This document shows, in pieces, positions 16,030 to 16,376 of a stretch of 64,000 nucleotides of DNA (position 1 is its first letter; the number at the start of each line of letters is the position of its first letter). The DNA is from a virus: IMG/VR virus record IMGVR_UViG_3300043410_001007, positions 1 through 64,000 of that record. The stretch is one strand, 5' to 3'. The position numbers and the translations under genes were made by a program. Under the pieces are notes generated by a model. It worked only from the letters and a program-made list of their open reading frames with translations, did not search any database and was not told where the DNA came from.

Positions 16030-16376
16030 AACCAACAAACTACATTGTGTTGTTGTTAGATACCATTCACCGTCTCCCCCCTGTAATTTTCTTCTGTTCG
16101 GTTGCTATTTTTCACAACCAAGGTAGAACGTTCGCCGAAGCACCGATAGAACCTATGTAAATTGACCAGTTAATCTGTTGGACGCAGTAATCCCCTTCCG
16201 AGGGAGATTTTGCGTTTAGAGACTTGTTGAGCTTAGTATTGTCCACTCTTTGGTCTTACTCCACGGGCAGTGTCGGCTTGCCTCGCAACGTTTCTAGTTT
16301 GAGTCTTTGTTTGACTATTTTTGAATTTTTAAAAGATAGATCGACCGCTTTGTCTCACGATTCGAACAGAGGGATA
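16030..16376 (-). ncRNA. Candidate structured non-coding RNA
   Basis: No credible ORF; the minus strand has cUUCGg (16134-16141), a GGAA-capped long stem with G-U pairs (16182-16215), a GGUUG/CAACC stem (16100-16119) and a G6 tract (16076-16081). Confidence 0.4.

Follow-up and report, generated by a model that had tools for sequence, protein, structure and literature searches.

What is encoded in the 514-nt gap (15863-16376) between two converging genes of the virus record IMGVR_UViG_3300043410_001007? The window analysed here is the first 64 kb of this record, which comprises 103,929 bases and has an estimated completeness of about 29%. A first-pass annotation had placed a structured RNA at 16030-16376 and offered two readings of it, a functional non-coding RNA (ncRNA) or a primer transcript forming an R-loop. 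Comparison with related phages indicates that the element is real but that its conserved core is smaller, spanning 16070-16320 on the minus strand. The first reading is backed by 11 relatives, compensatory changes, an excess of G-U pairs and the non-coding character of the core, while no support was found for the second. The best overall explanation, to which we attach a probability of about 0.6, is that this interval is the gene for a folded ncRNA of about 250 nt from a family not described before. As judged from comparative sequence analysis, the core is a genuine non-coding, folded RNA element that defines a new sequence family and sits in a swappable slot of freshwater jumbo phages; with its flanking hairpins, the RNA perhaps reaches about 450 nt.

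Relatives were reached through the protein of the neighbouring gene, a putative Holliday-junction resolvase, which led to contigs in IMG/VR and JGI metagenomes that were then searched with the gap sequence using nhmmer. The segment 16325-15974 proved conserved in contigs whose resolvases are only 53-65% identical (E-values of 1e-45 to 1e-22). Two pattern scans with conserved core motifs added further members, an exact 24-nt core pattern occurring in five viral contigs and a looser version in one contig more. The resulting group, hereafter designated as family A, has 12 members (the window, L102, L104, L103, L025, L021, L023, L101, L100, L179, L188 and L024, the last one cut off). In all 12, the element lies between the resolvase gene and a gp51-like gene, on the resolvase strand, and the relatives are all uncultured jumbo-phage contigs. 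The core is single-copy in the 104-kb record. BLASTN analysis of the region against 50,697 phage records gave no match, the exact 24-nt core pattern was absent from 185,579 prokaryote species genomes, and an exact 21-mer of the G run found no match in IMG/VR.

The core is more conserved than either neighbouring gene, with a nucleotide identity of 85% to L102, 82% to L103 and 77% to L025, against 60-64% for the resolvase gene and 59-66% for the gp51-like gene in the same comparisons. The earlier claim that 15863-16376 holds no credible open reading frame (ORF) is borne out. A conserved protein-coding frame was looked for and not found, the core being closed in every frame in six of six relatives. 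Substitutions relative to the window are evenly spread over the three codon phases (17/21/16 and 32/37/32) with no third-position bias, and indels in the core have lengths of 1, 2, 8, 19 and the like, which are not multiples of three. The gap had also been described as the only large one in the window, which is nearly the case, but a crude ATG-only ORF call leaves 345-791 and 52609-52887 uncovered as well.

For the fold, conserved blocks served as anchors; two domain covariance models (5' and 3') were built from MAFFT alignments, and all members were realigned to them. In the resulting predicted structure, six hairpins or helices (P1-P4, P6 and P7) are kept by compensatory changes (Table 1). 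On these model-fitted alignments, which favour structure, 93.9% of the cells in the 5' domain are standard pairs, compared with 68.7% in shuffles and 24-46% when the partners are slid, and 17 of 20 pairs changed on both sides. For the 3' domain, the corresponding values are 93.3%, 83.7% and 30-54%, with 7 of 18 pairs changed on both sides, the covariation signal stemming from P6, P7 and the closing pair of a 32-nt block. The same changes are visible by eye in unfitted segments (P2, P7). The folded strand is taken to be the minus strand because G-U pairs outnumber A-C combinations by 40 cells to 4.

Table 1. Features of the RNA locus and its surroundings, in window coordinates; pairings are predicted.
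Feature	Position	Strand	Evidence or remark
Conserved RNA core, family A	16070-16320	-	nhmmer and covariance-model matches in 11 relatives; closed frames, no codon periodicity
P1 hairpin AGUC/GACU, conserved loop AAACAAA	16302-16316	-	6/6 model pairs changed on both sides, e.g. CAGGUC/GACCUG, UAGGAC/GUCCUA
Near-invariant junction ACUAGAAACGU	16288-16298	-	kept in all members; each GUUCUA copy in the 3' block is complementary to it, pairing a candidate only
P2 hairpin CG(A)GGCA/UGCCCG	16264-16285	-	98.6% of cells paired; 5/6 pairs changed on both sides
Conserved GGAG before P3	16259-16262	-	
P3 AGAC/GUCU, enclosing P4	16220-16256	-	95% paired; 3/4 pairs changed on both sides
P4 GAGU/GCUC, conserved 12-nt loop GGACAAUACUAA	16229-16248	-	100% paired; 3/4 pairs changed on both sides
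Conserved UAAAC after P3	16214-16218	-	
P5 hairpin AAUCUCC/GGGGAUU, loop CUCGGAA, variable central region	16189-16209	-	weakly supported
Conserved ACUGCG, then P6 hairpin with conserved loop ACAGAUUAA	16164-16188	-	82% paired; 3/5 pairs changed on both sides
Nearly invariant 32-nt block GGUUCUAUCGGUGCUUCGGCGAACGUUCUACC, irregular UUCG-capped hairpin	16122-16153	-	near-identical in 10/12 members
P7 hairpin GGUUGU/GCAACC, conserved loop GAAAAAUA	16100-16119	-	100% paired, four pair types
Conserved AACAGAAG	16091-16098	-	kept in all members
G run GGGGGGAGAC	16072-16081	-	kept in all members
Small hairpin UCGA.UCGU/GCGGUCGA, then U/A-rich stretch, just past resolvase stop	16341-16365	-	window's closest group
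H0 hairpin downstream of core	16029-16062		stems covary, loops kept in relatives
H1 hairpin, loop GAGCGAAGCGA on plus strand	16000-16026		stem covaries, loop kept
H2 hairpin, loop GAGCGAAGCGA on plus strand	15952-15999		stem covaries, loop kept
A/U hairpin with U6 tail	15923-15947	-	folding
H3 hairpin	15897-15920	-	folding
H4 hairpin adjoining gp51-like stop	15865-15895	-	loop type GGAAYGAARUGGA seen again in relatives
Sigma-70-like promoter, the best in the region (TTGACA-16-TAGAAT with TG)	21056-21083	-	11/12 consensus matches; consensus match only
PDDEXK_15 endonuclease, putative Holliday-junction resolvase	16377-16895	-	Pfam PF24608, E 1.7e-26
gp26-like baseplate hub gene	14814-15638	+	Pfam T4_baseplate, E 2.7e-19
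gp51-like 78-codon frame overlapping gp26-like gene	15626-15862	+	kept in >70 relatives

Within this framework, P2 recurs in other members as UCAGCA/UGCUGA, GUAAG/CUUAC, GUGAG/CUCAC and GGAGA/UCUCC, and P7 exists in six versions in all, including CCAGU/ACUGG, CCUGU/GCAGG, CCAGC/GCUGG, ACGGU/GCCGU and CAGC/GCUG. P6 carries one U-U mismatch in the window. P5 is present in the window and irregular in relatives, larger domains replacing it in subtypes B, C and D. The 32-nt block has at most three substitutions in L025 and L021, and only the closing pair outside the block varies (AU, GU or GC). On the minus strand, the 3' end of the core reads AACAGAAG and then GGGGGGAGA. C-rich segments able to pair with the G run sit at different places in different subtypes, and a pseudoknot between the two is a candidate pairing only, as is that of the 5' junction CUAGAAAC with either of the GUUCUA copies.

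Several of the stems first noticed in the window reappear in the comparative structure. The GGUUG/CAACC stem corresponds to P7 and covaries, the cUUCGg hairpin (16131-16144) keeps its stem while its loop varies (UCCG, CUCA), and the G6 tract (16076-16081) is conserved. The ACGCA...UGCGU stem is present in the window (16183-16217) but was not found outside one subtype, and the UUGC-gag-GCAA stem did not survive the comparison, which uses CG.GGCA/UGCCCG (16264-16285) instead. Folding of the single sequence gave z = -2.5 for the minus strand (2 of 100 shuffles being as good) and z = -2.0 for the plus strand, and carries little weight since these values are only modestly better than shuffles. The closing helix of the minimum-free-energy (MFE) fold, CCCUCUGU/ACAGGGGG, was rejected, as it was found only in the window and L023, and the long-range helices of that fold were unsupported by comparison.

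The core matches no known RNA family. Infernal searches of 15500-16900 with Rfam 15 (4227 models, including GOLLD, ROOL, group I and II introns, RNase P, tmRNA, riboswitches, small ribozymes and RNAI) gave no match in the core at E <= 10, and no family threshold was reached. The only two matches were at chance level and outside the core, namely MicF (19 bits versus 79 needed) and a 25-nt viral pseudoknot. Seven related loci covering all versions of the slot had no match at E <= 1, and ARAGORN detected no tRNA or tmRNA in the 64-kb window. A group I intron was rejected, the element lying past the stop codon of a full-length 172-aa resolvase and between converging genes. Likenesses to an RNase P-like motif and a double T-loop found no model match, with L179 and L188 losing key A residues, and a cobalamin-riboswitch-like P2 loop had no model match either. 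A catalytic RNA of an undescribed class, self-cleaving or otherwise, or the RNA subunit of an enzyme, would account for the invariant junctions and the invariant internal-loop block set among covarying helices, which are typical of ribozyme cores, and larger ribozymes are of comparable size. This possibility is nonetheless very unlikely, given the lack of any Rfam match to a ribozyme, group I/II intron or RNase P, the lack of a split host gene, and the lack in the window of tRNA genes for which an RNase P-like partner would be needed.

Among known systems, the phi29 pRNA, a structural RNA encoded by the phage, retains its fold and genomic place in related phages although its sequence diverges strongly between them. 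The parallel is an analogy only, in the keeping of fold and place across phages; the locus studied here has no Rfam pRNA match, belongs to another phage type and shows no link to portal or terminase. A closer likeness is offered by GOLLD and ROOL, large ornate RNAs of phages and prophages that have no assigned function (PMC12286853), exceed 500 nt and often adjoin tRNA genes. Like them, the core is a phage-borne, multi-helix ncRNA with conserved loops and junctions, found by comparative analysis of lake sequences. It differs from them by the absence of a covariance-model match, by its size (about 250 nt in a gap of 514 nt, versus >500 nt), by the lack of tRNA genes in the window and by the fixed slot of family A, from resolvase to baseplate-hub genes. 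No paper describing the RNA was found in the literature, the comparison stopping short of the alignments behind some 10,000 candidate viral RNAs catalogued from IMG/VR in 2023 (motifs of 29-151 nt; PMC10690425). Such an RNA is not mentioned in a 2026 jumbo-phage review, and the four ncRNAs identified by RNA-seq in PA5oct are located elsewhere in that genome (PMC7318152).

The same place in related phages is frequently occupied by other RNAs. Both flanking genes converge in 72 related loci, with a gap of 420-580 nt in about 60 of them. All-against-all BLAST of these gaps yielded three groups: a large family (63 of the 72 loci, among L004-L099 and L107-L184, in the gap after the resolvase), family A, and a small third family (L003, L045, L055, L114 and L131). 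Heavy covariation across 55 distinct sequences marks the large family as a multi-helix RNA in its own right, about 370 nt long, in which a dozen helices covary and which is followed by two hairpins. All 12 family A and 63 large-family loci use the same slot and the same strand (resolvase sense). The resolvase of L020 is 95% identical to that of the window, yet its gap of 884 nt is unrelated and contains a small ORF with a QSregVF_b domain together with about 380 nt of unrelated orphan non-coding sequence. Similarly, L100 and L102 have common flanks and a common 3' domain, with different 5' and central domains. Together with the slot families, these cases indicate that the RNA is exchanged as a module at a fixed place, and the slot behaves like a swappable RNA cassette of freshwater jumbo phages.

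An ORF of the L020 kind (QSregVF_b / ExoX-like_C, 87-92 aa) was observed between the resolvase and the slot sequence at 4368-4631 in L020, 406-684 in L023 and about 4480-4760 in L101; in L023 and L101, additional hairpins (about 110 nt) intervene between this ORF and the core. Despite this insertion, the family A core keeps its position in L023 and L101. In PA5oct and SCTP-2, the genes are arranged in another order and nothing similar to the RNA families was detected. In PA5oct (L185), the interval from hub to resolvase (75,700-77,180, about 1.5 kb) is annotated only with four ORFs of 38-50 codons.

Whether these occupants are separate cassettes or variants of one RNA is less easily settled. 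Family A might be a far-diverged form of the common ~370-nt slot RNA, the two constituting one class with one function. They share slot, strand, phage group, a similar size and the same kind of loop-conserved downstream hairpins, and short motifs occur in a common order (UGGAGUAAG, GGA.AAUAC, UCAACAAGUCU, UAAAC, an AAAUAG-loop hairpin and the G run). However, homology was not detectable: the large-family profile HMM, run with speed filters off, matched nothing in family A cores, covariance model R1 had no match in 164 other loci and model R2 none in five large-family loci, and UCAACAAGUCU, although shared, is paired in a different way in each structure. A single class is thus doubtful. We more readily, but still tentatively and at somewhat less than even odds, envisage a fixed RNA slot harbouring at least 3-4 non-homologous large structured families that are swapped as exchangeable, functionally equivalent modules, each followed by hairpins of the GAGCGAAGCGA type. 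If this were true, the slot RNAs could be host-matched specificity or counter-defence determinants, or RNA parts of a phage machine.

These downstream hairpins have features of their own. In the 64-kb window, the GAGCGAAGCGA loop motif occurs only at H1 and H2 (15952-16026). The H0-H2 region (15952-16062) folds with -42.6 kcal/mol on the plus strand versus -36.1 kcal/mol on the minus strand; for 15865-15947, the values are -32.7 kcal/mol on the minus strand versus -20.8 kcal/mol on the plus strand (z = -5.95). In the large family, a similar loop, GAACGAAGUGA, is found on the resolvase-sense strand, so that the orientation of this loop type relative to the RNA flips between the two families. 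On the other side of the core, the small hairpin past the resolvase stop displays a U-G/C-G swap in the closest group, is no more stable than shuffles (z = -0.2), and is represented by different hairpins in other members.

The occurrence of GAGCGAAGCGA in either orientation across families would suit a DNA signal in the hairpin part of the gap. On a DNA-level reading, the conserved blocks could be protein-binding sites or single-stranded DNA hairpins serving packaging, a recombination hotspot or an origin, with no functional RNA involved. The core speaks against this: G-U and A-C cells stand at 40 to 4, only 79% of the 3'-domain cells pair on the complementary strand, and compensatory changes are not needed by double-stranded DNA sites. 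An element acting solely as DNA is accordingly most improbable.

The hairpins also bear on the R-loop reading. Here, the transcript, hybridised to its template via the G run, would prime the leading strand, and the GAGCGAAGCGA hairpins of the displaced strand would signal priming or loading. Consistent with this, the G run is conserved, the two special hairpins are restricted to this place in the window and recur beside the RNA in several related families, and the locus adjoins recombination and replication genes. Structured primer RNAs exist, such as ColE1 RNA II, which is likewise a structured transcript of a few hundred nt with a G run, and DNA mini-hairpins of the GCGAAGC type have been described in origins of phages. 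However, the 22-nt resemblance to a ColE1 origin segment noted in the first-pass annotation is not conserved, only the G run plus AGA of the 26-mer being kept, with GGTATCT found only in the closest relative, L023. BLASTN against 72,556 plasmids gave only 34-50-nt matches at E >= 0.1, none of them at an origin, and there was no Rfam match to RNAI or a ColE1-type RNA.

T4 origins offered a second precedent for such a primer. GC content is 0.39-0.45 in 300-nt windows across 15900-16500, near that of the neighbouring genes, and the only A/T-rich patch in this interval is 15921-15947. No A+T-rich unwinding element of the T4 type (oriF/oriG) was found in the core, nor any skew turn beyond the switch in gene orientation. 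A test for MotA-type promoters found no conserved promoter-like box upstream and no enrichment of TAAAAATT in the 64-kb window, the middle-promoter consensus of this phage group being not established. The R-loop origins oriF and oriG of T4 do not need an ornate fold with conserved loops, and the conserved A-rich loops and G-U-rich fold of the core favour a folded RNA over one hybridised to DNA. In addition, the flipped orientation of the hairpins in family A and the large family is a misfit with one fixed fork geometry. Because the ColE1 likeness is not conserved and neither plasmid-origin similarity nor an A/T-rich unwinding stretch was found, the primer or R-loop reading is unsupported, and we regard it as quite unlikely.

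Returning to the folded ncRNA, its transcription may depend on the neighbouring genes. The sigma-70-like promoter at 21083-21056 heads the minus-strand gene block that ends at the RNA. At roughly even odds, the RNA would be transcribed as the tail of this early-type block (Mre11/Rad50-like genes and the resolvase) from the promoter near 21083. Between the resolvase and the RNA, there is neither a late-promoter motif nor a consensus terminator; the terminator scan covered this junction and the whole gap and found none. The motif GATAAATAC is probably the late promoter of the phage, to be compared with TATAAATA in T4. It is absent from the gap and has seven exact copies, at 10588, 14773, 21119, 29229, 32946, 52611 and 57666, located just upstream of genes and oriented with them. 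With a transcript continuing through H0-H2, or as far as the U6 tail near 15923, the RNA may be 370-450 nt long. L021, L025 and L103 have a U run after H2, on the strand of the RNA, where the transcript may end.

Such signals could also belong to a cis-acting 3' end, that is, a structured untranslated tail combined with a bidirectional terminator of the converging operons, protecting the mRNAs from 3' exonucleases and stopping read-through. The position between converging genes, the U run in these three members, the A/U hairpin with its U6 tail in the window and the lack of an evident separate promoter are in line with this possibility. Yet a terminator needs far less than an element of about 250 nt whose six helices covary and which has conserved loops and an invariant block of 32 nt. 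The core is also more conserved than the genes it would serve, it stays in place in L023 and L101 despite the ORF that parts it from the resolvase, and the gap scan found no consensus terminator. We consider a role confined to the 3' end unlikely.

As to what the folded ncRNA might do, the largest single share of our expectation, well below half, goes to a trans-acting scaffold or decoy that would be produced early in infection and bind a phage or host protein, with the invariant block and conserved loops as contact surfaces. A protein-binding role in trans would explain how phages that are nearly identical elsewhere can exchange the whole RNA as a cassette. Several points weigh against this account and against the ncRNA gene itself. 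The RNA is a prediction from sequence; family A has only 12 members, several of them closely related; and covariation tests on fitted alignments lean towards structure. Covariation is uninformative for the G run, the 5' junction and the invariant block, and P5 is irregular. No promoter upstream of the RNA is conserved across family A. H1 and H2 fold better on the strand opposite to the RNA, so that the 3' part of the gap may belong to converging late transcripts. Finally, nothing points to a specific partner, and the scaffold or decoy is a role that we only infer.

Few large structured RNAs have many conserved helices, and almost every one that was studied proved to do something notable (ribozymes, riboswitches, RNA cages). 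In a phage group that abounds in lakes, such an RNA occupies a fixed place and is conserved above the neighbouring proteins, yet is swapped wholesale for other structured RNAs. This pattern poses the testable question of whether these RNAs are interchangeable parts with one job or host-matched specificity factors. Family A appears as a well-supported orphan RNA family, and a small, well-delimited RNA of this kind, with six supported helices and an invariant block of 32 nt in about 250 nt, is suited to probing, structure determination and pull-downs.

By its proteins, the phage of the window is predicted to be a jumbo myophage distantly related to PA5oct, Atu_ph07, SCTP-2 and the Rak2 group. 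Gene content near the gap includes a gp26-like baseplate hub, Rad50/Mre11-like nuclease subunits and the PDDEXK_15 endonuclease, which related records annotate as a Holliday-junction resolvase. The latter is full length (172 aa), as indicated by end-to-end alignment with 16 homologues. Resolvases P0001-P0016 are 86-94% and 60-65% identical, some of them on contigs of 13-356 kb, and their contigs would probably add intermediate relatives. The gp51-like frame, whose first ATG comes only at 15686, shares 13 nt with the end of the gp26-like gene. Because all 78 codons are conserved in more than 70 relatives, it may start at a non-ATG codon, or by coupling or frameshifting from gp26. Further along the window, a single open frame of 6540 codons (32986-52608, plus strand), to our knowledge among the largest in phage contigs, lies downstream of the GATAAATAC motif at 32946.

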